Assembly: GCA_001783715.1 (NCBI GenBank) | Contig: MFNF01000061.1 | Coordinates: forward strand, 6,722 to 70,721 | Length of the DNA stretch: 64,000 nucleotides | Source of the DNA: Candidatus Lambdaproteobacteria bacterium RIFOXYD2_FULL_56_26 | GTDB lineage: Bacteria > SAR324 > XYD2-FULL-50-16 | Reading direction: 5' to 3' | Shown here: piece after piece, positions 12,725-56,667 of the stretch | How positions within the stretch are numbered: the first letter of the stretch is position 1 | Layout of the letters: every line of letters starts with the position of its first letter | Notes under the pieces: generated by a model | Told to the model about the DNA's origin: nothing | Databases searched by the model: none | The model's input: only the letters and a program-made list of their open reading frames with translations | Made by a program: the position numbers and the translations under genes

Positions 12725-12734
12725 AGGAGACCTT

Positions 12735-13089: not shown

Positions 13090-13458
13090 ATGTTTGTGAT
13101 TTCCCAAAAGGCGGCAGAAAAGTTTCTGGAGTCCATGGAACAGATCGGCGAGACCGGCTTGTTTTTGCGGGTTGCCGCCCGCAAGCACCCCGACCAGGGG
13201 ATTGCCTACAACATGGGCTTTGACCACGCCACCCCTGAGGACAAGCAGTTTGAAATGGCGGGCCTTAAGGTCTGCTATGATGAAGAAACAGAGCCGAACA
13301 TCAAGGACATGGTGATCGACTTTGGGGAGCATGACGGCATCGAGCAGTTTATCTTTATGAATCCCCAAGACGCTCCCGCCAACGACCCCAGCAGTTGCGG
13401 AACCACCAAGGGTTCGGGCAGTTGCGGTTCGGGCAAGGGCACCTGCACCTGCGGTTAG
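13090..13458 (+). CDS. IscA/HesB-fold protein lacking the canonical IscA Cys ligands, with a Cys/Gly-rich C-terminal tail (DsrR-like?)
   Basis: N-terminal ~95 aa align to the IscA fold (GLFLRVAARKHPDQGIAYNMGFD...FIFMNP), but the CxGC/CGCG ligands are replaced by SSCGTTKGSGSCGSGKGTCTCG. Confidence 0.55.
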   Translation: MFVISQKAAEKFLESMEQIGETGLFLRVAARKHPDQGIAYNMGFDHATPEDKQFEMAGLKVCYDEETEPNIKDMVIDFGEHDGIEQFIFMNPQDAPANDPSSCGTTKGSGSCGSGKGTCTCG

Positions 13459-13461
13459 GCG

Positions 13462-14998: not shown

Positions 14999-15027
14999 GT
15001 TATCCCTAGCCCAATCAGGATAAGGTT

Positions 15028-16704
15028 ATGTCGAAATATGTACCGAAAATGGCCGAAATGGCCGCCTTGATGAACGGGCAACAAAGCCTGCTCACCGGCA
15101 AAGCTCCCGCCAGCGGCTGGCTGGAGACCCCACCGGAATTCCGGCCCGGCAACTACTGCTACAGTGCCAAGCCCGAAGCGCTCAACGGGTTGGGCCTGCC
15201 CCACCCCCGAGAGTGGGACCCCGCCGAGGCGGACTGGAAGCTGCCCGAGAACTGGATGCAGCTCATGCGAGACGGCATGAAGGCTCGGCTGGAGAAGAAC
15301 CGGGCCTTTAAATTGTTCATGGATGTTTGCGTCCGCTGCGGTGCCTGTGCCGACAAGTGCCACTTCTTTTTGGGCACCGGGGACCCCAAGAACATGCCGG
15401 TCATGCGGGCCGAACTGATGCGCTCGATCTACCGGGGGGAGTTCACCACCGCCGGGAAGATCTTGGGCAAACTGGGCGGAGCCCGGAAGTTCACCGAAGA
15501 CGCAGTCAAAGAATGGTACATGTATTATTACCAATGTACCGAATGCCGCCGCTGCTCGGTCTTCTGCCCCTACGGGATCGACACCGCCGAAATCACCATG
15601 ATGGCTAGGGAGATGTTGCACCTGATCGGGGTCAACATCAACTGGATCCTCAAACCCGCTTCGGACTGCAACCGCACCGGGAACCACCTGGGGCTGGAGC
15701 CCCACGCCTTTGTCTCTTCGGTCAACAGCATCTGTGAGGACCTCGAAGATGTCACCGGCATCGCCATTGAACCCAGCTTCAACCGCAAGGGGGCAGAGGT
15801 GTTGTTCATCACCCCTTCCGCCGATGCTTTTGCCGTGCCGGGCATGTACACCATGATGGGTTACCTGCTCTTGTTTGAACACATCGGCTTGGACTACACC
15901 ATCAGCACCTATGCCTCCGAAGGGGGCAACTTTGGGCTTTTTTCCTCCAACGAGATCATGAAAAAGCTCAACGCCAAGATGTACCACGAGGCGGAGCGGC
16001 TCAAGGTCAAGTGGATCTTGGGCGGAGAGTGCGGCCACATGTGGCGGGTGGTTCACCAGTACATGGGCACCATGAACGGCCCGGCGGACTTCCTAGAGGT
16101 CCCCAAGAGCCCGATCACCGGCACGGTCTTTCACAACGCCAAGGCCACCAAAATGGTGCACATCGCCGAGTTCACCGCCGACCTGATCCGGCACAAAAAA
16201 CTGAAGCTCGACCCCTCTCGGAACAACCACCGGAACGTCACCTTCCATGACTCCTGCAACACCAGCCGGGGCATGGGGATGATCGAAGAGCCCAGGTACA
16301 TCTTAAACGCTGTGACCAACAACTTCCATGAAATGGACGAAAACTGCATCAAGGAGAAGACCTTCTGCTGCGGTTCCGGCTCGGGGCTCAACACCGAGGA
16401 ATACATGGACATTCGGATGCGAGGCGGTTTCCCCCGTGCTTCGGCGGTCAAGGAAGTCAAAGAGAAAAAAGGGGTCAACATGTTGACCGCCATTTGTGCC
16501 ATCGACCGGGTAGCACTGACCGCCAGCATGAACTACTGGGTCCCTGGAGTCGGGGTTTCGGGTTTGCACGAGCTGGTGGGCAACGCTTTGGTGATGGAAG
16601 GCGAAAAGAGCCGAACCGAAGACTTGCGAGAGGAAGACATGGATGTTGAAGTGAAGGGAGCAGACGCACAAGCAGCCGAGAAGGAGGAGGAAAAAGATGT
16701 ATAA
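15028..16704 (+). CDS. dsrK: DsrK, HdrD-like catalytic subunit with CCG domains
   Basis: 558 aa; ferredoxin-like CxxCxxCxxxC (CVRCGACADKC, CTECRRCSVFCP) and CCG-domain Cys motifs (CCGSGSG). Confidence 0.9.
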   Translation: MSKYVPKMAEMAALMNGQQSLLTGKAPASGWLETPPEFRPGNYCYSAKPEALNGLGLPHPREWDPAEADWKLPENWMQLMRDGMKARLEKNRAFKLFMDVCVRCGACADKCHFFLGTGDPKNMPVMRAELMRSIYRGEFTTAGKILGKLGGARKFTEDAVKEWYMYYYQCTECRRCSVFCPYGIDTAEITMMAREMLHLIGVNINWILKPASDCNRTGNHLGLEPHAFVSSVNSICEDLEDVTGIAIEPSFNRKGAEVLFITPSADAFAVPGMYTMMGYLLLFEHIGLDYTISTYASEGGNFGLFSSNEIMKKLNAKMYHEAERLKVKWILGGECGHMWRVVHQYMGTMNGPADFLEVPKSPITGTVFHNAKATKMVHIAEFTADLIRHKKLKLDPSRNNHRNVTFHDSCNTSRGMGMIEEPRYILNAVTNNFHEMDENCIKEKTFCCGSGSGLNTEEYMDIRMRGGFPRASAVKEVKEKKGVNMLTAICAIDRVALTASMNYWVPGVGVSGLHELVGNALVMEGEKSRTEDLREEDMDVEVKGADAQAAEKEEEKDV

Positions 16705-17074
16705 CGCCAAGATCATTCTTCCGGTCCTGCTGGTTTTTTTAGGTTTGTTGACCTACCCGCTGTGGTCCCAAAAAGCCTCGGCCCCTCCGGTCCTGGCTAC
16801 CCCGCTCAAAGGGGAGCATTGTATTGAATCCAAGGATTGGATGCGGGCCAACCACATGCAGCTGTTGGAACAGTGGCGGCATTCGGTGGTCCGGGACCAA
16901 AACCGGGACCATGTCGCTACCGATGGCCAGCATTACAACAAAAGTCTGAGTAACACCTGCCTGGACTGCCACCAAAAAGAACAGTTTTGCGACAGTTGCC
17001 ATACCTACGCCAGCGTCCACCCCTACTGCTGGGAATGCCATTTTGACCCCAAGGAGGTGAACCATGTCCATTGA
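16697..17074 (+). CDS. dsrJ: DsrJ, periplasmic trihaem cytochrome c
   Basis: 125 aa, signal anchor, three CxxCH motifs (CLDCH, CDSCH, CWECH); start overlaps dsrK. Confidence 0.9.
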   Translation: MYNAKIILPVLLVFLGLLTYPLWSQKASAPPVLATPLKGEHCIESKDWMRANHMQLLEQWRHSVVRDQNRDHVATDGQHYNKSLSNTCLDCHQKEQFCDSCHTYASVHPYCWECHFDPKEVNHVH

Positions 17075-17843
17075 CCGGAGAGATTTTTTGAAGAAACTGG
17101 GCTTGGGCTCCATGGTGAGCCTGGGCGGTTTCGGGTTTTTGAAAAAAATGGGTGGCCCGGAAGAGGCGATTGCTTCGGGGGCGACCTTGGAAACCGCCGA
17201 CCCCAACAAAGTACGTTGGGGCATGGTGATCGAAATGGGCAAGTGCCAGGAAGGTTGCACCGACTGCATCTCGGTCTGCCACCTGACCCACAACGTACCC
17301 GACCATGGGAACAAAAAAGACGAGATCAAGTGGATCTGGAAAACCGGCTACAAGCACCTCTTTACCAATGAGGCGCACCAGTACGCCCAGGATGGTTTGC
17401 CGGACAAGCCCTTTTTGACCTTGTGCAACCACTGCGACAACCCCCCTTGCACCCGGGTGTGCCCCACCGAAGCGACCTTCGCTCGGCCCGATGGGATTGT
17501 GCAGATGGACTTCCACCGCTGCATCGGCTGTAGGTTTTGTATGGCCGGCTGCCCTTACGGTTCCAGGAGCTTCAACTGGCGGGACCCCAGACCGAACCTC
17601 AAGGAAATCAACCCCAATTTCCCGACCCGAGAGCGTGGAGTGGTGGAGAAGTGTAATTTCTGTACCGAACGGATCGACAAGGGAGAACGTCCCGCTTGTG
17701 TCGAGGCCTGCAAGGAAGGGGTACTGACCTTCGGTAACCTCAACGACCCCAATTCGGAGATCCGGCAACTGCTGGCCGAAAAACGTACCAACCAACGAAA
17801 ACCCGAGTTGGGCACCAAGCCCTCGGTGTTTTACATCGTCTGA
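17064..17843 (+). CDS. dsrO: DsrO, periplasmic ferredoxin-like Fe-S subunit (Tat-exported)
   Basis: Twin-arginine motif RRDFLKK; multiple 4Fe-4S Cys clusters ([34 protein letters not shown]...C). Confidence 0.9.
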
Positions 17844-17857
17844 GCCGGGAGAACGAA

Positions 17858-19009
17858 ATGATTGAAAAGGCATTGACCGGAAACCGGAGCTACTTTGGCT
17901 GGCTGGCTCTGTTGGCCCTGGTGGCGGCCAACGGGGTTTATTTTTACGGGCAGCAGTTGACCTACGGTCTGGGGATCACCGGGATGAGCCGGGACATCTC
18001 CTGGGGGGTTTACATCGCCCAATTCACCTTCATGGTCGGCGTGGCCGCCAGTGCGGTGATGTTGGTTCTGCCCTACTACATCCACAACTACAAAGCCTTC
18101 GGGAAGATTGTGGTGTTGGGGGAGTTTTTGGCGGTGGCGGCGGTCTCCATGTGCATGATGTTTATCATGGTGGACATGGGCAAGCCGATGCGGTTCCTCA
18201 ACGTCATGCTTTACCCCTCACCCCACTCGATCCTCTTTTGGGATGCGACGGTGCTCAACGTTTACCTGTTCCTCAACCTGCTTTGCGGTTGGGTGGCCTT
18301 GGAGTCGGAAAAAAAGGGCACTCCCCCGCCCAAGTGGCTCAAGCCCTTTATCTACCTGTCCATCCCTTGGGCCTTTTCGATCCACACGGTGACCGCCTTT
18401 TTGTACGCCGGTTTGCCCGGAAGGCACCTGTGGCTGACCGCCATCATGGCCCCTCGCTTTTTGGCCTCCGCCTTTGCCGCCGGTCCGGCTTTGTTGATCC
18501 TCCTAGCCTTGCTGCTGCGCCGGGTGGCCAAGTTTGATGCCGGGGACGAAGCGATCCAAAAGCTGGCCACCATCGTCACTTACGGGGTGATCGCCAACTT
18601 CTTTTTTATTGGCTTGGAGTTTTTTACCGCTTACTATTCGGGGATCCCCAGTCACCAACACAACCTGGACTACCTCTTTTTTGTGCTGGAAGGGCACGGC
18701 AACTTGGTACCCTTCTTGTGGACCTCGGTAGTTTTGGGTTTTGCCGGGATGGGCGGACTGTTGTGGCCGGGGTTGCGGAAAAACGAAAGGATTTTGGGCC
18801 TGATTTGCGGGGCGATCTTCATTTCCCTGTGGATCGACAAAGGGATCGGGTTGGTGATCGGTGGTTTTATCCCCAACCCCTTGGAAGAGATCACCGAATA
18901 CTACATCACCTGGCCCGAGTTTTCCATCACCTTGGGGATCTGGGCGATTGGGGCGATGATCTTGACCTTGCTGTACAAAATCGCCCTTTCGGTGAAAAAG
19001 GCCCAATAG
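17858..19009 (+). CDS. dsrP: DsrP, NrfD/PsrC-family integral membrane quinone-interacting subunit
   Basis: 383 aa with ~10 TM helices, NrfD-like, directly after dsrO. Confidence 0.88.
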
Positions 19010-27209: not shown

Positions 27210-28505
27210 CTAGAATAAGTCCTTCAGGTGGATGGTTTCCTCCCGTTTGGGACCGGTTGAAATCAAGGTCAGGTCCACCTGCAACAGCTCTGAAATCCTT
27301 GCCAAATAAGCTTTTGCATTGTCCGGCAGTTGGTCGAAATGGGTAACCCCCTTGGTGGAGGCCTGCCAGCCCGGCAATTCTTCATAAACCGGGATCAATT
27401 TTTCCTGCAAAGAAAGCCGGTGGGGGAAATAATCAAAGGTTCCGCCCTTGGGATCCTGGTAATGGGTGCAGATTTTTAAGATCGGCAGGCCGTCGAGCAC
27501 GTCCATCTTGGTGATTCCCAGGTCGGTGATGCCGTTGATCCTGACCGAATCCTTGAGCAAGCAGGCATCAAACCAGCCGCAACGTCTTGCCCGGCCCGTA
27601 GTGGCACCAAATTCCGCCCCCACGCTGGAGAGGTGTTTGCCCACCTCGTCGGTCAGTTCGGTGGGGAAGGGGCCGGAGCCGACCCTGGTGGTGTAAGCCT
27701 TGACCACACCCAAGACCCGGTCGATCCGGTTGGGAGCGATCCCCGAACCGGTGCAAGCCCCGCCGGAGGTGGTGTTGCTGCTGGTGACAAAAGGATAGGT
27801 GCCGTGGTCCACGTCCAGGAACGTCCCCTGGGCACCTTCAAACAGAACGTTGACCCCGGACTTGATCTCCCGGTCCACCAAACGGCCGGTGTCGGCGATG
27901 TAGGGCCGAATCTTTTCCATCTGCAACATCAATTCTTCAAAGACTTGGTCCGGGTCCAGGAAGGGACCTTCAAATTCCAAGACATGTTTGAGGTACTTGT
28001 TTTTGTCTTTGACCAACCGGTCCAGCTTGGACTTGAACCGAGAATCGTTGTCGATCTCCACAAACCGAATCCCTTCCCGGCTGGCCTTGTCCTCATAGGC
28101 GGGGCCGATGCCCCTGCTGGTGGTACCGATCTTGTCCTTCCCGGCCCGGGTCTCCCTCGCCTTGTCGATCATCAGGTGGTAAGGCATGATCAGGTTGGCT
28201 ACATCGCTGATAAAAAGGCGGTCTCCCATGGAAACACCCAGTTTTTCCAGCTCGGCGATTTCCTGCAACAACGCCTGGGGATGGATCACCATGCCGTTGC
28301 CCAAAACGCAGCGAACCTTCGGTTGCAGAATCCCCGAGGGGATCAGGTGCAAGATGAAGGTTTTGTCGGAAAACTTAACCGTATGGCCCGCATTGTTGCC
28401 TCCCTGGTACCGGACCACGACTCCGGCCCGTTCGGCCAGCAGGTCCACCAGTTTGCCCTTGCCTTCATCTCCCCACTGGGAGCCGATCACAATCACGTTG
28501 GCCAT
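27210..28505 (-). CDS. purA: adenylosuccinate synthetase
   Basis: P-loop QWGDEGKGK, GGNNAGHT and other PurA motifs; start at MANVIVIGSQ. Confidence 0.95.
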   Translation of the reverse strand: MANVIVIGSQWGDEGKGKLVDLLAERAGVVVRYQGGNNAGHTVKFSDKTFILHLIPSGILQPKVRCVLGNGMVIHPQALLQEIAELEKLGVSMGDRLFISDVANLIMPYHLMIDKARETRAGKDKIGTTSRGIGPAYEDKASREGIRFVEIDNDSRFKSKLDRLVKDKNKYLKHVLEFEGPFLDPDQVFEELMLQMEKIRPYIADTGRLVDREIKSGVNVLFEGAQGTFLDVDHGTYPFVTSSNTTSGGACTGSGIAPNRIDRVLGVVKAYTTRVGSGPFPTELTDEVGKHLSSVGAEFGATTGRARRCGWFDACLLKDSVRINGITDLGITKMDVLDGLPILKICTHYQDPKGGTFDYFPHRLSLQEKLIPVYEELPGWQASTKGVTHFDQLPDNAKAYLARISELLQVDLTLISTGPKREETIHLKDLF

Positions 28506-28562
28506 AACAAATGCCTCTTTCTTTGGGGTTTTGGGCCGCCCCATTGGCGGAATTCCAAGGTC

Positions 28563-29171
28563 TCAAATGGTTTTGCGGACCACTCGACCAGCTAGCAACG
28601 CTACTCTACCCCTAGCCACCTCGTCCAGTGCCAAGGGGAAGATTCGGTGTTCTTCAACCAAGATGCGGGCGGCCAGGGTTTGAGCGGTGTCATCGGGCAA
28701 AACCGGTACCACCGCCTGTTCGATGATCGCCCCCGAGTCCACCCCTTCGTCCACAAAGATCACCGAACAGCCCGAATAGCGGACCCCATAATCGATCGCC
28801 TTTTGGTGGGTTTGGAGCCCGGTAAAAGCGGGCAACAAGGAGGGGTGGATGTTGACCAACTTCCCTGCCCAAGTGCGGACGAACCAAGGGGACAAAAGCC
28901 GCATAAACCCGGCCAGGGCGACCAGCTCAATCCCCTGTTCTCGCAGCGTCTGGTCCAAGACCCGGTCAAAGCTTTCCTTGTCCGCAAAGTCCTTGTGAGA
29001 GAGGACCTGGGTCTTGAGTCCGGCAGCTTGGGCTTTTTGCAGACCCGCCACCCCGGCAATGTTGCTGACCACCAGTTTAAGGTCATAAGCGGCATTCCCG
29101 GACCGCCAATGGTCGATGAGGGCCTGGAGGTTGGTGCCAGTGCCGGAGATAAAAACGGCGGTCGGGGTCAT
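28563..29171 (-). CDS. purN: phosphoribosylglycinamide formyltransferase
   Basis: 202 aa with a formyl-transferase domain ([28 protein letters not shown]). Confidence 0.9.
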
Positions 29172-30919
29172 TGGTTTTCGGGACTCGAAGCGATGACCTT
29201 TTGTTCCATCGACAACCGGTACTCAAAGTGAACCGCCTTGAGGGCCGGGTATTTGATCGAAAGGATTTGCAGAGCCAAGACGGCAGCATTGTCCCCCCGG
29301 TCGATACCCACTGTGGCCACCGGGATTCCCGGCGGCATTTGGACTATGGCCAACAAAGCGTCCTGGCCGTTCAAAGCGCTGCCCGAAACGGGCACGCCGA
29401 TCACTGGCAGCCCGGTCTCCGAAGCCACCACACCGGGCAGGTGGGCGGCCATCCCGGCAATGGCGATCAACACCTCCACCCCTTGGGCGGTCCAACGTTC
29501 GATGGTCTGCCGGGTCCGTTCCGGGGTCCGGTGGGCCGAGGAAACGATCACCTCGTAACCGATGGAAAATTCGTCCAACAGGTCGGTACCCTTTTTGGCT
29601 ATCTTGAGGTCCGAGGCACTGCCCAGGATGATCCCCACCTTGGTCCCTAGGGGAACCCCCTTTTTGAGCCCCTTGAGGCCGATGTCCCGGCGTTTTTGCA
29701 TCCCCGGCCAGTGGATCTTGGCGGCCCCTTGGTAGGCCTTTTTGAGTGCCCCTTCCAGGTCCTCGCCCAGGGCGGTGACCCCCAAGACCCTGCCGCCGTT
29801 GGTACGAAAACGGTTGCCTTCCTTGAGGGTTCCGGCGTGGAAGACTTGCAGCTCCGGCCCCTCTCCTACCTCTTCAAGCCCTTGGATGTAATGTCCTTTT
29901 TTGTAGTCCCCCGGATACCCGGCGGAGGCCAACACGATACAAGCGGCCGCTTGGTCCTTCCATTTTGGTTGGTAGCCCTTGAGCCGCCCTTGGGCCACCC
30001 GCAAGCCCAGTTCCACCAAGTCCCCGTCAAAAAGCATCATCAAAGGCTGGCATTCCGGGTCCCCGAAGCGGATGTTGTACTCCACCACGCTTGGGCGACC
30101 TTGGTCGATCATCAGGCCGATGTACAAGACCCCTTTGTAGGGGTTCCCTTCGGCGGCCATGCCCTGGAGGGTCGGCTCCACCACCTGAGCCAGGACCAAG
30201 GCCTTGACGGCCTCGTCCACCACCGGAGCGGGGGCATAACAACCCATCCCGCCGGTATTGGGACCCAGGTCCAGTTCAAAAATTCGTTTGTGGTCTTGCA
30301 GGCTGGGCAGGCAGACATAATCCTGGCCGTCGGAAAAAATAAAAAAGCTGGCTTCCTCACCGGGCAAAAAGGCTTCGATCACCAGGGTCTTCCCGGCGGG
30401 GCCAAATTTCCCGCCCAACATCTCGGCCACGGCGGCTTCGGCTTCAGGCAGGGTTTGGGCGATGACCACCCCTTTGCCTGCCGCTAGCCCGCTGGCTTTG
30501 ATCACAAAAGGTGGCTTTTGGGTGGAAAGGAAAGACTGGGCTTGGGCCAAGGTGGTACATTCGAGGTAAGCGGCAGTGGGGATTTGGTTGCGGGCCATAA
30601 AGGCCTTGGCAAAGGCTTTGCTCCCTTCGAGCCTCGCCGCTTTGGCGCTGGGGCCAACCACGGCGATGCCTGCCGCCTCCAGTTGGTCGGTCAACCCTTG
30701 GACCAGATAGTCCTCCTGGCCGATAAACACCAGTCCGACCCCCATTTCCTGGGCCTTTTTGACGATCTCCTTGGGCTCGGTCAGGCCCCAGCAGGGGGCC
30801 AGGGCCTCAATCCCGCCGTTGCCGGGGGTCACGTAGAGCGCTTCCAATTGGGGACTTTTTTGTAAGGCATAGGCCAGGGCATGCTCCCGGCCCCCAGCCC
30901 CAACTACCAGAACCTTCAT
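29168..30919 (-). CDS. fused phosphoribosylamine-glycine ligase (PurD) / N5-CAIR mutase (PurE)
   Basis: 583 aa; N-terminal ~420 aa form the PurD ATP-grasp ([16 protein letters not shown]...); C-terminal ~160 aa form PurE ([11 protein letters not shown]...SSAHRTP...GIPVATV); 4-nt overlap with purN. Confidence 0.85.
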
Positions 30920-34311: not shown

Positions 34312-36435
34312 TCAATCGTTGGCTGGGGTGTAACGCTCTACAGTGTTTAAATAAGTAGCTGCCGCCGATTGCCCGCCGACAATGTAAATGTAGGTCCCGT
34401 CGGTAGCACAGCCGTGCCCCCACCGAGCGGAGGTTAAGCTGGTTTTGGTTGTGTAGCTGTCTGAGGTTGGAGAGTATTTAAGAACACTGTCCAAGGCACT
34501 GTTGGTTGTGGTCAATCCACCAAAGAGATAAATCTCGCTGTTGTAGACAGCCGCACAAAAGCGGGATCGTCCCGTTGAGAGGGCTGCAATACTTGTTGGA
34601 GTGTACGAACTGGTGTCATAGACTTCTGAGGTCGTTAGTGCCGAGCCCGTGATGTATCCAGCTCCATTGTATCCGCCAAAAAGATAGACTTTGGTGCCGA
34701 TTACGGCGTGGGCGAAAGAGGCCCTTGCGGTGATCATATTGGTCCCTGCCGAACTCCAAGAACCGCCAGTCAAGGTATATACTCCAGAAAGGAACGAAGA
34801 CGTTGTACTGTAGTATCCCCCAAAGGTCCAGAGGGTGGTGCCGATATACTCCATTCCTGTGTCGGTTAAGGTAGCTAAGGAATGGTTGTAAAGCGTGCCT
34901 GTCCCCAGACTACCGTAGCTGGTCAAATACACGGAGGTAATCCCAGTACCGTTAGTGTCTGTTGAACCAGTGCCGTAATAATAGCTTGCCCCGTCTGTTG
35001 CGGCTAAGGCTACCGTATGAGCGGACAATATTGGGCCTGATGGGTTATTCCAACCGCCCCCGCTGATTGAGTAAACAGACAATTGGTTAAAGACTGCACC
35101 ATTATAACCTTGGCCACAGGTGATAGTGCCTGAGGTGCTGAGGTAGATACAATTGATATTCGTAATAGCGGTAGGTAAAGTGTTTAAGGTGGTCCAAACC
35201 GCCAAAGTCGTGAAGGTGGTCCCCGTATAAGCCGTAGCCAGTGCGTTTCCGGCAGTGTCTTTGGGTTTAAAACTGCTGGAACTGCCGACCACTACCACAT
35301 TGTAAGCGGTGTTTGCAGAAAGGGAACCGGTCAAGGTGAAGGTGAACACTGTGTTGCTGCTGGCGGTTACGGTGCTGCTCATCATCACACAAGTACTGCC
35401 GGTTGTCTTTTGCAGGTACACGGTACCCACACAGGCACCGGTGGCATCAGCACTGATCGAAGTGGTGTCCATCGCTTCGCTGAAGGTAACCACCACCGTG
35501 GTGATCGAAGAGGCGCTTGCCGCCGCAATCGGGGTCACGCTGACCACCGTAGGTGCGGTAGTGTCGGCGGTGCTGGCGGTGGTAAATCCGGTGGACTGGG
35601 TGTCGGCTGCCGCCAGGGCGTTGCCCGCCGCATCCTTGGCCGCCGTGGTCACTTTGATCTTGTAGGTGCTGCTTCCGGTCAGGTTGGCCGAAGGGGTCAG
35701 GGTGAAGGCGGTTTTGGCCGTATTGGCGGTGATGGTGCTGCTCATCGCCACACAAGTCGAGAATCCATCGCTGGAAAGCTGCACCGAGCCGGAGCAGGTG
35801 GTGGTGGTCCCGGTGGTGATGGTGGTGCTGTCCATCGCTTCGCTGAAGGTCACGGTGAGGGTCGAGTTGACCGCCACGGAAGTGGCCGAGTTGGCCGGGC
35901 TGGTGCTGCTGAGCGTGGGGGCCGTAGCGTCTTTGGTGGTAAAGCCGACCGACTGGGTGTAGTCGGAACTCAAGGCAGTGCCGCCGGAACTCTTGGCACT
36001 GGTGCTGACCCGGACTTTGTAGGTTGTGCTTTCCGTTAAGTTGGCCCGGGTGGTAAAGACAAAAGATTTGTTGTCCGAAGTCGAAGGGGCCCCCAACAGG
36101 GCGCAGGTAGAAAAGTTGTCCGACGAAAGCTGGATCGCCCCGGCACAAACACTGTCGCTCCGGGAGGAGTTGGTGCCAACCGAGGTGACATCCATTTCCT
36201 GGTCAAAGGTCACGGTGATCGTGGGCACCACTGCCACCGAAGTGGTGGAGTCCGAAGGGGTCACCGAAGAAACGGTGGGGGCAGTGGCCGTGGTCGTGTC
36301 TCCCGCTTCCGGAGCCCCGGCGGTGACTTCGGTGGTCTCCAGGGGGCTGTCTTCGAGGGTTTGCCCGCCGCAACCGGCGAGCAGGATCAGGCCCAAACCC
36401 AGGGCCAAAGCGTAAAAGGAACGGTTGGTTTTCAT
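34312..36435 (-). CDS. surface lipoprotein with three tandem Ig-like (SbsA/Big-type) domains and a C-terminal Kelch/beta-propeller region
   Basis: Lipobox (LLAGC); three ~100-aa Ser/Thr-rich repeats each starting ATAPT(V/L)SS...VTFSEAMD; C-terminal repeated LYxFGG/IYLFGG Kelch blades. Confidence 0.7.
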   Translation of the reverse strand: MKTNRSFYALALGLGLILLAGCGGQTLEDSPLETTEVTAGAPEAGDTTTATAPTVSSVTPSDSTTSVAVVPTITVTFDQEMDVTSVGTNSSRSDSVCAGAIQLSSDNFSTCALLGAPSTSDNKSFVFTTRANLTESTTYKVRVSTSAKSSGGTALSSDYTQSVGFTTKDATAPTLSSTSPANSATSVAVNSTLTVTFSEAMDSTTITTGTTTTCSGSVQLSSDGFSTCVAMSSTITANTAKTAFTLTPSANLTGSSTYKIKVTTAAKDAAGNALAAADTQSTGFTTASTADTTAPTVVSVTPIAAASASSITTVVVTFSEAMDTTSISADATGACVGTVYLQKTTGSTCVMMSSTVTASSNTVFTFTLTGSLSANTAYNVVVVGSSSSFKPKDTAGNALATAYTGTTFTTLAVWTTLNTLPTAITNINCIYLSTSGTITCGQGYNGAVFNQLSVYSISGGGWNNPSGPILSAHTVALAATDGASYYYGTGSTDTNGTGITSVYLTSYGSLGTGTLYNHSLATLTDTGMEYIGTTLWTFGGYYSTTSSFLSGVYTLTGGSWSSAGTNMITARASFAHAVIGTKVYLFGGYNGAGYITGSALTTSEVYDTSSYTPTSIAALSTGRSRFCAAVYNSEIYLFGGLTTTNSALDSVLKYSPTSDSYTTKTSLTSARWGHGCATDGTYIYIVGGQSAAATYLNTVERYTPAND
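35325..36285 (-). repeat. three in-frame tandem ~300-nt repeats encoding Ig-like domains inside the lipoprotein gene
   Basis: Protein-level repeat (TAPTxSSxTP...TVTFxxxMD...GNAL); lower GC and T/S codon bias in this region. Confidence 0.6.
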
Positions 36436-36445: not shown

Positions 36446-37732
36446 TTAAAACTGGTAGGAGAAATTCATGGTGGGATGCTCAAAGCCGGGTAACAAGGCA
36501 AACTGCCATTGCCGGGCCGGGGCCGCTAGGTTTTGGGCGCTCTCGGAAGAGCCGCCAAAAAAGATAAAGTAGCCTTCCATCAAACCAAAGACAATGGTCA
36601 TGGAATCAAAGGTTTGCACTGCCGCTTTGTCTGCCTTCATCTTGGTGACATTGGCATCATATTCCGTTTTGATGGTCGCTCTTGTGGCGGTGGAATTGGA
36701 GGCATCATACTGGGTTTTCAGGTCTGCGTTCTTGGTAGCCAAGCTGTTGTAGTCCTTGGCGGCATTGGAGGACAACAGGGCGGTCCCCCCGGCTCCGGCC
36801 AGGGCAAAAAGATGCCAGCCCCAACCATATCCGTCTCCGCCGTCACTGGTGATCCTGGGTCCCAGGTCCACCGGAGCGGCCTTGGCTCCAGAGATTTCGG
36901 CGGCAGTTTTGCCCACCAGCTCCAAGGAGAGTTTTTCCAAGGAGACATCTAAGTTGGAGAGGTCCGAGTTGTGTTGCACCGTCTTGGAAACCAGGATCGA
37001 ACCGTCCTGGATGGCCATGATCTTGGCGCTTAACATGTATTTGGTGTCGTTGATCTTAAACAGACTGGTGGAAACCACCCGGTCCACCCCCAATTGCTCG
37101 CCGATCAAGGTAGCACATTCGTCCCGGGTACACCCAGAGGTCTTTTGGATCTGCTCGGGGTTCATCTTGTCCACATCCGCAGAACTGGCCAACTTGAAGG
37201 GGGCTACCGAACTGAGGCTGGAGCGGAACAAGTCGGAAAAGGCTTTGATCTGGTCTTTGTTCAGGTCCTTGGCTTCAATGTCCAAAACCGCCACCAAGGT
37301 TTCTTTGGTGGTTTTTTCGGTCTCAAAAACCACTTCGGCTTGGCCGATCACCTCGCCGCCCAGACCGGCGATGCCCGCCAGATTTAAGGTGGTCTTCTCC
37401 CCTTTTTGGTCGTAGGTGCCCTTAAAGACCAAGGCCTTGCTGAGGTTGATCCCGCTTAAGCTGTCGGACAAAAAGACCAGCTTAAACTCAGGGAAAAACT
37501 TCTCCAAGGCCATGTAAAGACTGGTTTCAATTTTCTTGGCCGTGGCATCGGTCTGTTGGTTGTGGATGTTAACCACTTGGATCACAATCGCCTTTTCGGC
37601 GTTTTTGGCGATTTTGGGCTTTTCCTGCAGCTGTTTGGCCGCATCTTCCATCGCCTCTTTGAGGGGCTGGGCCAACAACGGTCCGGTCAGGGCCAAAAAC
37701 AAACCAAAAAAAAGAACCAGTCGCTGGATCAT
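36446..37732 (-). CDS. hypothetical exported protein
   Basis: 428 aa, signal peptide, no confidently recognised domain; a Gly-rich amphipathic C-terminus may form a membrane hairpin. Confidence 0.4.
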   Translation of the reverse strand: MIQRLVLFFGLFLALTGPLLAQPLKEAMEDAAKQLQEKPKIAKNAEKAIVIQVVNIHNQQTDATAKKIETSLYMALEKFFPEFKLVFLSDSLSGINLSKALVFKGTYDQKGEKTTLNLAGIAGLGGEVIGQAEVVFETEKTTKETLVAVLDIEAKDLNKDQIKAFSDLFRSSLSSVAPFKLASSADVDKMNPEQIQKTSGCTRDECATLIGEQLGVDRVVSTSLFKINDTKYMLSAKIMAIQDGSILVSKTVQHNSDLSNLDVSLEKLSLELVGKTAAEISGAKAAPVDLGPRITSDGGDGYGWGWHLFALAGAGGTALLSSNAAKDYNSLATKNADLKTQYDASNSTATRATIKTEYDANVTKMKADKAAVQTFDSMTIVFGLMEGYFIFFGGSSESAQNLAAPARQWQFALLPGFEHPTMNFSYQF

Positions 37733-39210: not shown

Positions 39211-40821
39211 ATGACCATCAAAACAAAAATATTAGCCGGTTTTTCGGTGATACTCTCTTTGGCGTTGTTTCTGGGAGGTTATAACCTTCTGGGTTACCGG
39301 TCTATCGGTGATGCGGTCGAGAATATCGAGTATTCCAAGTTTTTTGCCCTTTTGGAGATCCAGCACCGCAAATGGAACGAGGGGCTGGCTTCGGTTTTTT
39401 TAAAAGAAGACCTGTCGGAAATGGCCATTGAACTGGACCACACCAAATGCCGGATGGGCCGTTTTCTGTACAGTGACGAGGCCAAACGGTTTGTGGAACA
39501 TTTGCCGACCATGGCCCCGTTGCTTGAAGAACTAAAGCCGGTCCACAAGGACCTGCATGATTCGGCCGGGGAAATTGGGGCTCTTTGGTTCACCCAGGAC
39601 CCCCAAAACCAAAGGGCAGCCAAAAAAATCTACCAGGACAAAACCCTGCCCTCTTTGTCCAAAATCGCCGACTTGCTCAACCGGATGTCCAGTGAGCTGG
39701 AAAAACTCGCCACCGGCTCGGCAGCCAACCTCTCAGAAACCGTCAAGGGCCGGACGACCCTTTCGGGGGTGCTGCTTGGTTTGATCTTGTTGTTTGGAGC
39801 AGTGGCGGCCTTTTTGATTGGCCGGAGCATCACCAAGGCCCTTTCGGCGGTGATCGGGGACCTGAACGTGGCTTCAAAGGCACTGAACACTGCCGGGAAG
39901 GAAATCGCCGGAGGATCGGTCCAGGTCGCCCAAGGGGCGAGCGAGCAGGCGGCGAGCTTGGAGCAAACCTCCAGCGCCATGGAAGAGTTGGCCTCACAGT
40001 CCAAAGACAACGCCGATGCCGCCCAACACACCTTCGAGGCGGCAGGTTCGATGAAAACCGGGCTGCAAACCGCCAGCAAGCAGGCTGAAAACGCCCTGAG
40101 CCTTTCGGGAAAGGCTTGTGGTGCCTCGGAACGAGGGGTGCTTTCGATGCAAAAAATCAGCGACAGCCTCAAAGAAGTTGACCAGGCCAGCCAAGAAGTG
40201 ATGGACATCATTGAGTTGATCAATGAGATCACTCATGAAACCAAAATGTTGGCTACCAATGCCGCCATTGAAGCCGCTCGGGCCGGAGAGCAGGGCAAGG
40301 GGTTTGCGGTGGTGGCCAACGAGGTTTCCAAGCTGGCCGAAAACTCCAAGGCTGCGGCCAAAAAGATCAACGACATCGTCAAGCTCAACGCCCAAAAGGC
40401 CCAGTCTGGCAAGGACCAAGCCGAAGAGGGCAACCGGGTGTTAAATGAGATCCACCAGCTGAGCACCCAATCCAAAGAGCTGGTCGCCCAGATCGTCCAG
40501 GCTAACCAGAGCCTCTTCTCCCAAGCCAGCGAGCTGGAAAGTCTGGCCGAGCAGATCAATCGGACCTCGCTGCAACAGTCCCAAGGGACCAGCGAGGTCT
40601 CTCGAGCGATTGTGGAGATGGACGAAATCACCCAGTCCAACGCCTCGGCGGCAGAGCAATCGGCCAGCTCCTCCGAAGGGCTCAAGGAACAGTCGGACGC
40701 ACTCCAGGCGACTATCGACCGTCTGGTGCAGCTGATCGAAGGCGGCGGTTCCGGTTCGGGGCAACCCACCGCCCACCCGACATCCGCCGGGATCCAGCGG
40801 CTTCGGTTGCCCTCCGCCTGA
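39211..40821 (+). CDS. methyl-accepting chemotaxis protein with a chemoreceptor zinc-binding (CZB) domain
   Basis: N-terminal CZB motif ([14 protein letters not shown]...H...H); TM/HAMP; MCP signalling domain ([33 protein letters not shown]). Confidence 0.85.
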
Positions 40822-40892
40822 GTCCCAGGTACTTTTAAATCTCTTTTAGAATCAGAGGATAAAGGAGTAAAAAGAGAGTCGGCGGCCTTGGT

Positions 40893-41401
40893 ATGGCACC
40901 GCTAAGGTTGACCCAGGCCTGCCGCTTGGCGGACCGGCACAAAAAAGAGGTGGCGCTGCTGTTTTTGGACCTTAACCGTTTTAAGCAGGTCAACGACAAC
41001 TTGGGCCACGAAAAAGGGGGGGGACCCACTGTTGCAAGAGGTCTCCTGGCGACTGCAAAGCTTAGTCCGTAGTTCGGATACCGTGGGCAGACGGGGGGGA
41101 TGAATTTACCTTGGTGCTCGAAGAGGTGGAAAACGAAAATGCCGTGGCCGCCATTGCCCAGGGCATCGTCACCAAGGTGTCGGAGGCAGTGCTGCTGGGG
41201 GATGAAGAGGTTTTTGTCGGGGCCAGCATCGGGATTGCCCTTTACCCCAAAGATGCCCAGGACCTCAAGAGCCTGACCAAGGCTGCCGACTCCGCCATGT
41301 ATTGGTCCAAGGAAGCGGGCCGGGGGGCCTTCCGTTTTTACGACCCCAAACTGGATCTACCGGAGGCGCAAGACCCCGACCCTGGTCCGGAGCCCGCCTG
41401 A
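40893..41401 (+). pseudogene. GGDEF (diguanylate cyclase) domain remnant, N-terminally truncated and frameshifted at two poly-G tracts
   Basis: Three frames together read LLFLDLNRFKQVNDNLGHEKG / DPLLQEVSWRLQSLVRSSDTVGR / GGDEFTLVLEEV...; frame breaks fall in the runs of 8 G (near 41021) and 7 G (near 41087); no sensor or N-terminal domain upstream. Confidence 0.7.
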
Positions 41402-41431
41402 CACGGCCAGGGGTTGGCCCAAGCAAAAGGC

Positions 41432-41462
41432 AAAAAAAAGCCCCCGGAAGGAGGCTTTTTTG
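41432..41462. terminator. putative weak bidirectional terminator between the GGDEF remnant and clpX
   Basis: aaaaaaaagcc-cccggaagga-ggcttttttg: ~8-bp stem (mostly A:U) flanked by an A-run and a T-run. Confidence 0.25.
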
Positions 41463-41490
41463 TCTGCACCTGCTGGAACGGCCTAGCACT

Positions 41491-42735
41491 CTAGCTGGCT
41501 TTGTTGGCAGCGTCTTTTTTGTACAGGATCAGAGGTTCTTTTTTCCCTTCGATCACTTCCCGATCCATGACGATCTCTTCGATGTTGGTCACCGAAGGGG
41601 CTTCATACATGGTTTCCAACATACAGTCTTCCATGATCGCCCGCAGGCCCCTGGCCCCGGTGCGCCGTTCGATCGCCCGTTTGGCAATGGCCCGGATTGC
41701 GTCGTCCTTAAACACCATCTTGACCCCATCCATGGCCAAGAGGCTGGCATACTGGCGGGTCAAGGCGTTTTTGGGTTCCTTCATGATCCTGACCAAGTCT
41801 TCTTCGGTCAGGTCTTCCAAAGTGGTGACCACCGGCAACCGGCCCACAAATTCGGGGATCAGCCCGTACTTGAGCAGGTCTTCGGTTTCCACTTCGTTCA
41901 AAACCGAGGTGACCTTGCTTTGGTCGGTTTCCACCAGTTTGGCCCCAAAGCCCATGGACTTTTTCCCGATCCTCTCGTTGATCACGCCGTCCAGGCCCAC
42001 AAAGGCCCCGCCGCAGATAAAGAGGATGTTGGAGGTGTCCACCTGCAAAAATTCCTGTTGGGGATGTTTGCGACCCCCTTGGGGCGGGATGTTGGCCACA
42101 GTGCCCTCAATGATCTTGAGCAGCGCCTGTTGTACCCCTTCCCCGGATACGTCCCTGGTGATGGAGACGTTTTCGCTTTTCCTGGTGATCTTGTCGATCT
42201 CGTCGATGTAAACGATCCCCTTTTGGGCTTGCTCGATGTCGTAGTCCGAGGCTTGCAGCAGCTTGAGGATGATGTTTTCCACGTCTTCGCCGACATAACC
42301 GGCTTCGGTCAAGGTGGTGGCATCGGCCATGGCAAACGGAACCTTGAGGATCCGGGCCAAGGTCTGGGCCAGCAGGGTCTTGCCGGTCCCGGTGGGGCCG
42401 ATCAAAAGCACGTTGGACTTGGCCAGTTCAACCTCCCCCGCCTTGGGGGGGTAGTAGATTTTTTTGTAATGGTTGTAAACCGCAACCGCCAAAACCTTTT
42501 TGGCTTCGTCCTGGCCGATCACGTACTCATCAAGGATCGATTTGATCTCTTTGGGCTTACGAAGCTCCAGGCCGGATTCGGAGGGTTTTTCCTTGGCCCT
42601 CTCCTCTTCGATAATGTCGTTGCACAAGGCGATACATTCATCGCAGATATAGACCGCAGGTCCGGCGATGATCTTCTCGACCTCTTCTTGGCTTTTGCCG
42701 CAAAATGAACATCGAAGCGTGGTTTCTTTTGCCAT
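41491..42735 (-). CDS. clpX: ATP-dependent Clp protease ATP-binding subunit ClpX
   Basis: C4 zinc-finger (CSFCGK...CDEC), Walker [12 protein letters not shown]-type loop (MGFG); 414 aa. Confidence 0.95.
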
Positions 42736-42755: not shown

Positions 42756-43337
42756 TTAAGTTCGTTTTTCCATGGTCACGTCCACCAAGCCATATTTTAC
42801 CGCTTCATCGGCGGTAAGGAAATAGTCCCGTTCGGTGTCGTTTTGGATCTTTTTGAGATCCTGTCCGGTGTGCTGTACCAGAATGTCGTTGATGCGGTTC
42901 TTGACCCGAACGTTTTCCTTGGTTTGGATCTCGATGTCCGCCGCTTGACCTCCAATACCGCCGATCGGCTGGCGCAAATGGATCGTAGCATTAGGCAATG
43001 CAATTCTCTTTCCTTTTGTCCCACAAGCCATCAAAAGGGCGGCAATGTTCCTCGCTTGGCCGATGCAGATGGTTTGCACCTGGGGCCTAATGTACTGCAA
43101 GGTGTCGTAGATCGCCAACCCGGCGTTGACCGATCCGCCATAGGAGTTAATGTAAAGGCTGATGTCCGCATCCGGCTTGTCTGCCTCCAAAAACAACAAC
43201 TGGGCGATGACCACGTTGGCGCTGTAGGTGTTGATCTCCTCTCCCAAGAAGATGATCCGGTCCTTGAGCAGCCGAGAGTAAATATCATAGGTCCGCTCCC
43301 CCCGGTTGGTCTGTTCGATTACGTACGGGATGGTCAT
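42756..43337 (-). CDS. ClpP-family protein lacking the catalytic Ser and His (ClpR-like, predicted proteolytically inactive)
   Basis: Full-length ClpP fold in the canonical tig-clpP-clpX position, but the GQAASMG nucleophile motif reads GQARNIAA (codons gcg agg aac att gcc gcc) and the catalytic His position is Arg (NATIHLRQP); Asp retained. Confidence 0.8.
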
Positions 43338-44587
43338 GTGAGCAACTCTTTGGAAAGGTGATCCAAAACCGCTTCTTCGGCCATGGACTGGTAAACGTCG
43401 TTGTAAAACTGGCGGCCATAGTCGGTGCGCAGCAGTTCATTGGGGTTTTGGCCCATCATGCCTGCCTGCATGGAGAAACGTCGCCAGACTTCGTTGTCTT
43501 CGGGGGTGATCTTGTTGTCTTCGAGGTACCGGTGGATGTAGCGGTTGAGTCGCAGGTAGTCTTCCGCTTCCTTTTGCGCCAAAGGCCGCAATTCCGCTTC
43601 TTCCTTGCCCTTGTTTTGGGGGGATTGGGTCAGCTGGTGGAGCCGAAAGCCCACCTCGCTTTCAAGTAGGGAAGGGGGCACAACAAAGTTCAGGTGCCCG
43701 GCCAGTTGGGAGCGCAGCGCTTCCCGGTACTGGTTGGCCCGTTCCCGTTCCTTGATGCCCAAGAGTTCCTTTTCGATCAGCTGGTCAAAATCGGCTTCGG
43801 TCTTGATCGACTCGCCGTACCGGGCCAAAAAGGCGGCATCCAGGGCGGGCAACTGGCGGGTTTTGACTTCCTTGAGCTCAACCTTAAAATGGGCTTTTTT
43901 GTCCTTAAACCGGTCTTCGGGGTGGTCGGCAGGCAACTGGGCATCAAATTCCTTGGATTCCCCGGCCTTCATACCCACCAAGGCGGTCTCAAAGGCTTCG
44001 ATCAGTTGGCCGTTGCCCAAAACGGCGATAAAATCCTTTTGTTCAACCTCTTCTTCGTCTTCGGTCTTGCCGGTGAAATCAAGTTTCAGTTGGTCCCCGG
44101 TTGCGGCAGCGCCGTCCTTGGGGGAGAGTTCCGCCGCCCGGCCCAAATGGCCGTCCTTGCGGGCCTTTTTCTCGCTTTCGGTCAAGGAGAGTTCTTCCTT
44201 TTTGAGGGCCAAGAGGGATTTGGCGGGCATCTCAAAGTCCGGCCAGACCTCGAAGGTGGCGCTGAACACAAAGGGTTTGCCCTTTTCGACTTGGAGGTCG
44301 GAAAACTCGGGGTTCACCGCCGGAGCCAATTTTTCCTGGACCACCGCCTTTTGGTAGTACTGGGGGACCAGGGTTTCCATGGCCTCTTCCTGCATGTACT
44401 TGGAGAACCGCTTTTCCAACAGGCCCTGGGGCATCTTGCCCTTGCGGAATCCATTGATCTTGACCTTGGGCTTGAGCTGGTTGGAAACCTTCTCGTAAGC
44501 CGTTTCCACGTCCTTGGCCGGGACGGTGATGGTCAATTTGTTTTTAAGGTTGCCGAGGTCTTCCCGTTTGACGTTCAATGGTTCCAT
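43334..44587 (-). CDS. tig: trigger factor
   Basis: 417 aa with N-terminal ribosome-binding domain (GFRKGK), central FKBP-type PPIase and C-terminal arm. Confidence 0.9.
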
Positions 44588-54057: not shown

Positions 54058-56667
54058 ATGAGCCTGAACCTAGAACGGTTCACCCGTCCCGCTGAAGAAG
54101 CGATTTACTTGGCCCACCGGATTGTCTCGGAAAACCGACAACAAAAGATGGAGGCGGAACACCTGCTTTTATCGCTGCTGCGGCTCGGTGAAGGGGGGCT
54201 CAACGAAATTTTGGGCCAGCTCAAACTGGACAAAAAAGCCCTGGAAGAAGAGCTGCAAAGGTACTTGGAAAAACTGGACCCGGCCACCAGTCAAGGCAAG
54301 GATGTTTACCTCTCTTATTCCTGCGAGCAATGTATCCGCAAGGCCGAGTACGAGGCCGACCGGATGCGGGACGAATTCCTGGGTCCCGAACATTTGGTCC
54401 TGGGCATCCTGGCCAACACCGGCACCGAAGCCTCGACCATCCTGCGGGGCCAAGGGCTCGACCTCAAAAGCCTGACCAAAACCATCGAAGCCTTCCGGGG
54501 CGGCAAGCGGATCACCAGCCGGGGCGGCAACCCGGCGGAGCTGGAAAATGTCAACCTCTACTGCCGGGACTTTGTGGCCCTAGCTCGGGAAAACAAGTTT
54601 GACCCGGTGATTGGCCGGGACGAGGAGGTCCGCAGGGTGATCCAGGTGTTGTCCAGACGGAGCAAAAACAACCCGGTCCTGATCGGCGAGCCAGGGGTCG
54701 GCAAGACGGCAATCATCGAAGGCCTAGCCCAGCGAATCTACCAAGGGGATGTGCCTGAAAACATGAAAAACGCCAGTCTGATGGCCCTCGACTTGGCGGC
54801 TATGGTAGCAGGGGCCAAGTACCGTGGGGAGTTTGAAGACCGGCTCAAGAGCCTGCTCCGGGAGATCGAAACCGCCGGGCGGCACATCATCCTTTTTATC
54901 GACGAACTGCACACTCTGGTGGGGGCGGGGGCCTCCGAAGGGGCTCTGGATGCCAGCAACATGCTCAAACCGGCCTTGGCCCGTGGGGTCTTGCGTTGTG
55001 TCGGGGCAACTACCATCAATGAATTCAAAAAATACATCGAAAAGGACCCGGCCCTGGAACGGCGGTTCCAGCAGGTCCTGGTCAAGGAACCAACGGTAGA
55101 GGCTTGCATCGGCATCTTGCGAGGCCTCAAAGGCAAATACGAGGTCCACCACGGGGTGCGGATCAAGGATTCGGCCATTCTCGCTTCGGCCAAACTGGCG
55201 GCCAGGTACATCCCGGACCGTTACCTGCCCGACAAGGCCATTGACCTGATTGACGAGGCGGCCAGCAAGGTGCGCATTGAGATCGACTCCATGCCCACAG
55301 TGATCGACCAAGCGGAACGCAAGGCCTTGGGCCTAGAGATCGAACGGGCGGCCCTCTCCAAGGAAGAGGACTCTGAGTCCCGGCAGCGAACCAAGGAACT
55401 GGACCAGGAGATCCTGCGGTACCGGAAACAGGCAGAGGAGCTGAAGTCCCAATGGCGGTCCGAACGGGAGTTGATCAGCAAGATCAGGGCGCTCAAAGAA
55501 GAGATCGAACGGACCTTACAAGAAGAACTGGAAGCCCAACGGGCGGGGAACCTGGAGTTGGCCGCCAAACTCAAGTACGGCACCCAGGACGCTTTGCAAC
55601 GGGAATTGGCCCAGGCCAACAAGTTCCTGACCGATTCGGACCAAGGCCGTCTGCTCAAAGAGGAAATCGACGAAGAGGACATCGCCCAGATCGTCAGCAA
55701 ATGGACCGGCATCCCGGTTTCCCGGATGATGATGGACGAACAGGTCAAACTGCTTAACATGGAGCGGGCGCTTTCCCAAGGGGTGATCGGCCAAAAGCGG
55801 GCGCTCTTGGCGGTCAGCAACGCCATCAGAAGGGCAAGGACCGGCATCCAAGACCCCAACCGCCCCTTGGGCAGCTTTATCTTCATGGGGCCAACCGGGG
55901 TGGGGAAAACCGAGTTGGCCAAAAAGCTGGCGGCCTTTTTGTTTGACGATGAAAAAGCCATGATCCGCTTGGACATGAGCGAATACATGGAAAAACACTC
56001 GGTCAGCCGTCTGGTCGGGGCCCCTCCAGGGTACACCGGCTATGACGAGGGGGGCATCCTGACCGAGGCGGTCCACCGCAAACCCTATTCGGTGCTGTTG
56101 TTTGACGAAGTGGAGAAGGGGCACCCGGAGATCTTTAACGTCCTGCTCCAGATCTTGGACGAAGGGATCTTGACCGACTCTCGAGGCATCAAGGTGGACT
56201 TCAAGAACACCATCGTGATCCTGACCACCAACCTGGGCAGCGAGGTGATCCTAAAAACCTTCCAGGAGCAAAAGAAGGTCCCGCCGTTGCTGGCCCGAAA
56301 AATCCTCTTGGGCCACTTCCGGCCCGAACTGCTCAACCGGGTGGACGAGGTGATCGTCTTTGAACCCTTGACCTTGGAGTCCATCGAAAAATTGGTGGAG
56401 TTGCAGGTAGGCAAACTGAGCGACCGCCTGGAAGCGGGGGGAGGCACCCAGCTCAAGGTCAGCCCCGAAGCCCAGAAATTCCTGGCCCAACGGGGCTTCG
56501 ACCTGGAGTTTGGAGCCCGGCCACTCAAGCGGCTCTTGCAACGGGAACTGGAAGATGTGCTGGCCTACAAGATTTTAGACGGCACCATCCACCCCGGCGA
56601 CCAAATCGAAGTCCGCCTGAACGCCGACCAACTTACCTTCCACCGAGTCAAATCGGCGGAGGGGTAG
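54058..56667 (+). CDS. clpB: ATP-dependent chaperone ClpB
   Basis: 869 aa: Clp_N repeats, NBD1 ([10 protein letters not shown]), long coiled-coil M-domain, NBD2 ([12 protein letters not shown]), sensor-2. Confidence 0.95.

Follow-up and report, generated by a model that had tools for sequence, protein, structure and literature searches.

ClpXP is among the best-studied proteolytic machines, and the operon tig-clpP-clpX is treated as a bacterial constant. In cyanobacteria a further gene, clpR, adjoins clpP3 in an operon, and its product works with the unfoldase ClpC. ClpR is a triad-less structural subunit of the Clp protease core and occurs in cyanobacteria, plastids and apicoplasts (PMC7966870; PMC6508832). 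Here, we describe a ClpP homologue from 'Candidatus Lambdaproteobacteria bacterium RIFOXYD2_FULL_56_26', a member of the SAR324 lineage, which like ClpR has the ClpP fold, has lost the catalytic triad and is retained under selection, and which is encoded between tig and clpX on contig MFNF01000061.1 (assembly GCA_001783715.1). The whole stretch of DNA that was analysed, positions 6,722 to 70,721 of this contig, is referred to as the window; it is 64 kb long and has a G+C content of 56.4%.

A second group of related systems divides the work between two ClpP rings. Streptomyces ClpP2 carries a canonical Ser-His-Asp triad, and the genes clpP1 and clpP2 are adjacent. In the Streptomyces ClpP1P2 complex, ClpX, ClpC1 and ClpC2 bind ClpP2 only, and the complex is fully active when ClpP2 carries the exchange S131A (PMC9765437), so that the active sites of the docking ring are dispensable in this organism. 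For Mycobacterium, Chlamydia, Listeria and Pseudomonas, the literature describes two-ring hetero-tetradecamers with the unfoldase on one ring only (PMC6889138; PMC6773864), two clpP genes at separate loci, one of them beside clpX, in Chlamydia and Pseudomonas (PMC6773864; PMC12451819), and a non-canonical triad with Asn for Asp in Listeria ClpP1 (PMC9765437). Unlike the protein described here, both paralogues keep Ser and His in these four genera, and none is known to be naturally dead at the tig-clpP-clpX position.

A full-text literature search found no paper with both ClpP and SAR324, and the supplement of a SAR324 phylogenomics paper held no ClpP or KO entries. The literature on ClpR and pseudoproteases yielded only plastid, cyanobacterial and apicoplast ClpR together with unrelated papers, and in it we found no bacterial triad-less ClpP outside the cyanobacteria.

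The ClpP homologue and its operon

The operon and the sites discussed below are as follows, in window coordinates:

43334-44587, reverse strand: tig (trigger factor), first gene of the operon (Pfam Trigger_N, FKBP_C and Trigger_C; TIGR00115 at 309.5 bits, cutoff 180.2)
42756-43337, reverse strand: ClpP homologue, predicted to be catalytically dead, 193 amino acids, Asn97-Arg122-Asp171 (PF00574, E 2.3e-75)
43047-43049, reverse strand: Asn97 codon AAC, at the site of the nucleophilic Ser (codons read on the DNA)
42972-42974, reverse strand: Arg122 codon CGC, at the site of the catalytic His (codons read on the DNA)
42825-42827, reverse strand: Asp171 codon GAC, inside the E169-R170-D171 motif (codons read on the DNA)
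41491-42735, reverse strand: clpX, a complete AAA+ unfoldase (NF003745 at 664 bits and TIGR00382 at 647.9 bits, both above cutoff)
41947-41955, reverse strand: M-G-F tripeptide of ClpX, residues 261-263, in the IGF-type ClpP-docking loop (read from the motif)
41434-41461, reverse strand: intrinsic-terminator-like hairpin after clpX, a 12-bp stem followed by a T-run, closing the tig-clpP-clpX operon

A preliminary description of this DNA had proposed that the protein is a ClpP homologue along its full length and had suggested a comparison with Pfam. That comparison bears the proposal out, the match to PF00574 (CLP_protease) reaching 252.9 bits and extending nearly from end to end (profile positions 2-181 of 182), and residues 3-192 align without a gap to solved ClpPs at about 60% identity, including those of C. 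difficile (6mx2) and E. coli (1tyf). Ungapped identity of this order to crystal structures fixes the fold as that of the ClpP family, MEROPS S14, and the residue numbers of the window protein equal those of mature E. coli ClpP.

The three readings at the triad that had been made earlier all hold at the level of the codons. The nucleophile motif is GQARNIAA (codons AGG AAC ATT GCC GCC), with Asn in place of Ser, and no Ser or Thr occurs in the 17-residue segment around it; the general-base region reads NATIHLRQP, in which Arg122 replaces His; and the Asp of the triad is kept. Had the Ser and His merely been shifted, which had been named as a possible refutation, the alignment would tell a different story: it is ungapped, the motif is free of Ser and Thr, and His120 (42978-42980) is present in only a few members of the clade described below (P0001-P0004, P0014 and P0048), Leu being the residue in most of the clade. 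A shifted triad is therefore rejected. Another change close to the former active site is Tyr66 (43140-43142), which gives INSYGG for the otherwise invariant INSPGG, beside the oxyanion-hole residue Gly68, and which is found in P0001-P0006, the nearest relatives of the window protein, and in P0066. Tyr66 and His120 look like further local drift around a dead active site.

Profile scores point the same way. The active-ClpP equivalog model TIGR00493 gives 288.5 bits, below its cutoff of 308.6, and the only NCBIfam cutoffs passed are those of the subfamily models NF001368 and NF009205; the best NCBIfam matches are generic ClpP models, and weaker-scoring models lie far below their cutoffs. In its operon, length, fold, N-terminal loops, hydrophobic pocket, Gly-rich handle and E-R-D sensor the protein resembles the canonical ClpPs of E. 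coli and B. subtilis, from which it differs by the replacement of Ser97 and His122, by Ile or Val for Met98 and by its score below the TIGR00493 cutoff. It is predicted to be devoid of peptidase activity.

The housekeeping position of the gene between tig and clpX, noted earlier, is confirmed by gene profiles and operon layout. The tig stop codon and the clpP start codon share the ATGA at 43334-43337, and 20 nt separate clpP from the downstream clpX; the clpP frame is uninterrupted, and its translation is coupled to that of tig. The clpX gene, previously called normal-looking, deserves that label, as its product passes both curated equivalog models with all its motifs in place (Zn finger, Walker A and B, GYVG, RKH, pore-2, sensor-II and the MGF docking loop).

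Distribution and origin of the triad-less clade

A base-calling error had been suspected as the source of the missing triad residues. This is excluded by independent assemblies of ENA, JGI and Logan, in which at least 22 contigs encode the identical protein, and by the recurrence of the same residues with synonymous codon variation. The same protein is recorded as OGG99064.1, OGH01449.1 and OGH07063.1, from three 'Candidatus Lambdaproteobacteria' metagenome-assembled genomes (MAGs) of the Rifle aquifer. Beyond identical copies, we took the 120 best matches in a collection of 5.8 billion proteins as the homologue set; Ser97, His122 or both are missing from 71 of these clusters, which share 69-99% identity with the query. 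The triad positions read exactly N-R-D in 63 of the 71. Other states are N-Q-N in three clusters (P0035, P0037 and P0043) and, in single cases, N-H-D (P0041), N-L-E (P0066), H-R-D and S-R-D (P0079, in which Ser is back and Arg122 is kept). Asp171 is present in 67 of the 71 sequences and Arg170 in all of them.

The sources of these sequences are terrestrial Lambdaproteobacteria and marine SAR324 MAGs. Among species-representative genomes, nine loci were found, all encoding N-R-D within a tig-clpP-clpX operon and labelled as Lambdaproteobacteria (L001), SAR324 cluster bacterium (L003, L004, L005 and L008), Deltaproteobacteria (L007) or simply 'bacterium' (L002, L006 and L011). The same triad state and gene order recur on a long-read contig of 2.46 Mb (ERZ26696836:ctg89822, L088), and tig-clpP-clpX is found at each of the 12 loci of the clade that were read (the window, L001-L008, L011, L088 and L089). 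An artefact of base calling or assembly, or else a pseudogene in decay, would have to account for the identical protein on so many independent contigs and in three MAG records, for 71 clusters with synonymous variation at the new codons, for dN/dS values of 0.009-0.07 and for an intact frame coupled to tig; we consider the chance of either to be negligible. As far as these sequences reach, loss of the triad is lineage-wide and monophyletic and not a one-off.

Broader collections add little to this distribution. No close full-length match to the window protein is among the listed representatives of clusters at 50% identity, so that the triad-less clade has no such representative of its own; those listed are mostly truncated or fused oddities, and triad variants elsewhere among them are sporadic singletons only. 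When metagenome contigs were scanned with motifs from the alignment of the clade that are common to all ClpPs, the matches listed were ordinary relatives at 57-64% identity.

In a neighbour-joining tree, all triad-less sequences form one clade nested in a grade of Ser-His-Asp proteins, as seen in a single tree without bootstrap support, and the N-H-D sequence P0041 branches first. Its position in this one unsupported tree suggests that Ser was replaced by Asn before His was replaced by Arg. The intact-triad sister lineages have AGT at codon 97 and CAT or CAC at codon 122, versus AAT or AAC and CGC, CGA or CGT, respectively, in the triad-less clade, and from these codons each loss is explained by a single transition (AGT to AAT and CAT to CGT). 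Asn97 and Arg122 have since been kept through synonymous codon changes.

The closest Ser-His-Asp relatives (P0080, P0058 and P0069; 70-74% identical) are likewise encoded in tig-clpP-clpX, and two further ones (P0094 and P0116; 63-64% identical) in tig-clpP-clpX(-lon). We had considered these proteins as active paralogues from SAR324 genomes and rejected them as such, as they sit in the operons of other organisms. Because the nearest Ser-His-Asp relatives share the operon position, the housekeeping gene was disabled in place, as opposed to a ClpR-like paralogue having been inserted there. Judged from the protein and its neighbours in the tree, this is a second, independent and lineage-wide origin of a non-catalytic ClpP subunit, here by silencing of the housekeeping gene itself. 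In one unrelated organism with an active clpP (L172, 4577-6008), the upstream trigger factor is split in one assembly into two gene calls (Trigger_N and Trigger_C); it is intact in a second assembly (L173), and the split is therefore probably an assembly frameshift.

These relationships bear on whether the protein could act as ClpR does, as a dead subunit mixed with an active ClpP paralogue in one heptamer, in the manner of cyanobacterial ClpP3/ClpR or plastid ClpP1/ClpR1-4. The attraction of this explanation is that ClpR is an established triad-less subunit of a working protease (PMC7966870), dead and conserved by the same logic. ClpR is, however, an old diverged paralogue encoded beside ClpP genes, whereas the SAR324 protein is the housekeeping ClpP orthologue, nested among housekeeping ClpPs at about 60% identity, ungapped against canonical ClpPs and free of ClpR-type insertions; the replacement residues Asn and Arg are themselves conserved, and the surfaces within the ring show no remodelling specific to the clade. 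The gene stands in tig-clpP-clpX and is linked to ClpX, not ClpC, and no clpP lies adjacent to it or within 6-10 kb at SAR324-type loci. We thus regard mixed rings of the ClpR kind as improbable.

Constraint on the triad-less ClpP and on ClpX

The triad-less ClpP is under strong purifying selection. Pairwise ratios of nonsynonymous to synonymous substitution rates (dN/dS) are 0.009 (L003 versus L004), 0.027 (L006 versus L008) and 0.069 (window versus L001), synonymous sites being saturated in more distant pairs of the clade, and mean column entropy is 0.63 bits in the 71 triad-less sequences versus 0.64 bits in 40 active ClpPs from several phyla. Selection of this strength would follow, we propose, from retention of the fold, of ring assembly and of ClpX docking.

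The distribution of constraint along the protein has changed. When columns are ranked by gain in entropy, 96, 98, 66, 69, 71, 125, 142 and 150 are among the 14 most relaxed; from the E. coli ClpP structures 1TYF and 2FZS we take these positions to flank the nucleophile, to form the oxyanion/substrate strand and to line the S1 pocket. Columns that have grown more constrained include 60, 92 and 112 of the hydrophobic pocket and 11 of the N-terminal loop. The axial N-terminal loop is invariant or almost so (P4, V6, E8, Q9, G13, E14 and D18, with R15 in 69 of 71 sequences), and so are the pocket (L23, D26, R27, I28, L48, F49, Y62, Y82, I90 and L114), the Gly-rich handle strand (G127, G130 and Q131) and the E169-R170 pair. 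The Ser-Tyr-Tyr pocket residues S94, Y96 and Y116 of Streptomyces ClpP2 correspond to S60, Y62 and Y82 of the SAR324 protein. Residues typical of the clade and rare in active relatives occur at ten positions (97, 98, 122, 2, 29, 33, 54, 118, 143 and 188), three of which adjoin the active site: Asn at 97, Arg at 122 and, at 98, Ile or Val where Met is otherwise invariant.

The same columns speak to the idea that catalysis persists in cryptic form, through other residues or another mechanism such as a displaced His120 or a different nucleophile. Such a mechanism could draw on His120, two residues before Arg122 in the window protein, and on Asp171, which is kept. Yet His120 is replaced by Leu in most of the clade, the nucleophile motif is devoid of Ser and Thr, and the 71 sequences have gained no further invariant Ser, Thr or Cys, the clade-invariant ones (S21, S65, T89 and C91) all being shared with active ClpPs. 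The columns flanking the nucleophile (96 and 98) and those of the oxyanion loop (66, 69 and 71) are among the most relaxed, the opposite of what an active site would show, and we consider cryptic catalysis very improbable.

On the side of the unfoldase, the docking loop is MGF or LGF in all nine ClpX sequences of the clade that were displayed, and comparison with other ClpX proteins revealed no clade-specific change at this loop. The pocket and N-terminal loop on ClpP and the IGF-type loop on ClpX, which are the sequence features of a docking ring, are all intact. Changes specific to the ClpX of the clade are confined to residue 20 of the N-domain, residue 46 and a variable loop at residues 96-100. 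Residue 20 is Glu in 11 of 11 sequences and Lys or Arg in the others; on ClpP, Lys54 (43176-43178) is invariant in all 71 sequences, where active outgroups have Asp or Asn. ClpP Lys54 and ClpX Glu20 are two clade-specific charge reversals, and they are possibly linked. Taken together, relaxation at the active site, very strong conservation of the docking face and retention of the barrel are what would be expected of a dead but structurally working ring that binds ClpX.

A candidate docking ring and the search for a partner

The preliminary description had offered two options, hetero-oligomers with an active ClpP from another locus or a ClpX that unfolds on its own, and these are still the two candidate mechanisms. 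With moderate confidence, we favour the explanation that this pseudo-protease is kept as a ClpX-docking ring and that cleavage is carried out by an active ClpP from another locus. In SAR324/Lambdaproteobacteria, the orthologue of housekeeping ClpP has lost its nucleophile and its general base by one transition each, and would no longer cut peptide bonds. It would still fold and form heptameric rings that display the N-terminal gating loops and the hydrophobic pockets as docking sites for the (M/L)GF loops of ClpX, whose gene is co-transcribed. Such a ring would serve as the ATPase-docking and entry half of a two-ring barrel, as in ClpP1P2 of Streptomyces or Mycobacterium, with the catalytic sites contributed by an active ClpP heptamer from another part of the genome. 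Loss by two transitions without any other adaptation is easy to explain if the active sites of the docking ring were already dispensable in the ancestor.

In ClpP, the hydrogen-bond network of the triad is linked to the extended conformation that is competent for assembly. As Asn97 and Arg122 are near-invariant and Asp171 is kept, a structural role of the three residues is suggested: a salt bridge between Arg122 and Asp171, with Asn97 nearby, may replace the His-Asp hydrogen bond, and together they may mimic the network that couples the active site to that conformation.

Several observations weigh against a docking ring with an active partner. The ring-ring interface shows no change specific to the clade except L143V, and a new hetero-ring partnership might have altered it. 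The known docking-ring ClpPs of Mycobacterium tuberculosis, Streptomyces and Chlamydia (ClpP2) all keep their triads, whereas that of SAR324 is naturally gone, and, unlike in Streptomyces, no partner gene was located in the sequence read: tblastn found no second clpP in the 64-kb window, none lies in about 7 kb of additional contig past its right end, and none was seen at SAR324-type loci with 6-10 kb of flanking sequence where the contig allowed. More widely, no other ClpP-like sequence was detected by tblastn in the 12.5-kb genome loci (80 loci searched; 169 loci in total) or in 20-kb flanks of the operon on the 2.46-Mb contig. Because only some 10-20 kb around the operon were sampled per genome, this absence is uninformative, and the active partner, probably encoded elsewhere, is hypothetical.

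The same absence is the starting point for an alternative in which SAR324 has no active ClpP at all. The N-R-D ring would then be an allosteric partner, a cap or a holding chamber for a ClpX that unfolds or remodels its substrates, and Lon, FtsH or HslUV would have to take care of regulated degradation. Besides the lack of a second clpP in the sequence read, which carries little information given the limited sampling of each genome, it can point to docking elements conserved on both ClpP and ClpX, so that the pair would still interact, and to Asn97 and Arg122, which are near-invariant rather than drifting and thus suggest a specific role. A closed chamber without degradation would, however, become clogged by the unfoldase that feeds it, and the residues that line the chamber and form the handle are as conserved as in active ClpPs, which is easier to understand if the barrel still processes substrate. 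To our knowledge there is no precedent for a dead ClpP as the only ClpP of a genome, which also counts against this alternative, and we hold it to be rather unlikely. In a far-reaching form, the whole phylum would have dropped ClpXP proteolysis hundreds of millions of years ago and kept a near-unchanged dead barrel as an obligatory non-proteolytic partner of ClpX, with Asn97 and Arg122 selected to lock one conformation; this we think unlikely.

ClpB, encoded in the window at 54058-56667 on the forward strand, was considered as a ClpP partner and rejected, as its profile match is to a ClpB-type disaggregase and ClpB is not known to dock on ClpP. The protein has 869 amino acids and scores 1168.7 bits against TIGR03346, slightly below the cutoff of 1232.1. 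The same window that holds tig-clpP-clpX also carries two tandem Hsp20 small heat-shock genes (4417-4815 and 4846-5265, both on the reverse strand).

Other features of the window stand apart from the Clp genes. Between a chemoreceptor gene (39211-40821) and clpX, the interval 40835-41490 holds only fragments of a GGDEF diguanylate cyclase, for example the open reading frame (ORF) at 41111-41401 on the forward strand; as two small GGDEF genes are called by four independent assemblies, this remnant probably represents a genuinely disrupted gene. At 29168-30919 on the reverse strand, one ORF of 583 amino acids combines PurD (GARS_N, GARS_A and GARS_C) with a C-terminal PurE (AIRC), an uncommon fusion, and adjoins purN (28563-29171) and purA (27210-28544). 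The region 10380-19009 on the forward strand contains a sulfite-reductase-like gene (NIR_SIR, 10380-11585), a DsrMK-like pair (Nitrate_red_gam at 13958-14998 and Fer4 at 15028-16704) and a gene for an NrfD-family membrane protein (17858-19009); a similar Nitrate_red_gam and Fer4 pair lies directly downstream of clpX on the 2.46-Mb SAR324 contig. Finally, a protein of 707 amino acids with three Big_5 Ig-like domains and a C-terminal Kelch beta-propeller is encoded at 34312-36435 on the reverse strand, and the ORF of 428 amino acids that follows its gene (36446-37732) has no Pfam match.

An abundant lineage of oceans and aquifers thus appears to have silenced the active site of its housekeeping clpP while keeping the features for assembly and docking, in a gene that pipelines annotate as an active protease. 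If an active partner exists, the SAR324 protein would be natural proof that a docking ring needs no catalytic sites, the division of labour of ClpP1P2 in actinobacteria taken to its end-point, and a 'ClpR' that arose independently of the cyanobacterial one. If there is no such partner, SAR324 would provide the first case in which a ClpX-ClpP complex has been kept for a task other than proteolysis. In either case, the conserved Asn/Arg pair would offer a ready probe of how the triad network is coupled to ClpP conformation, and neither the logic of targeting ClpP with acyldepsipeptides (ADEPs) or beta-lactones nor automated annotation would be transferable to the SAR324 phylum.

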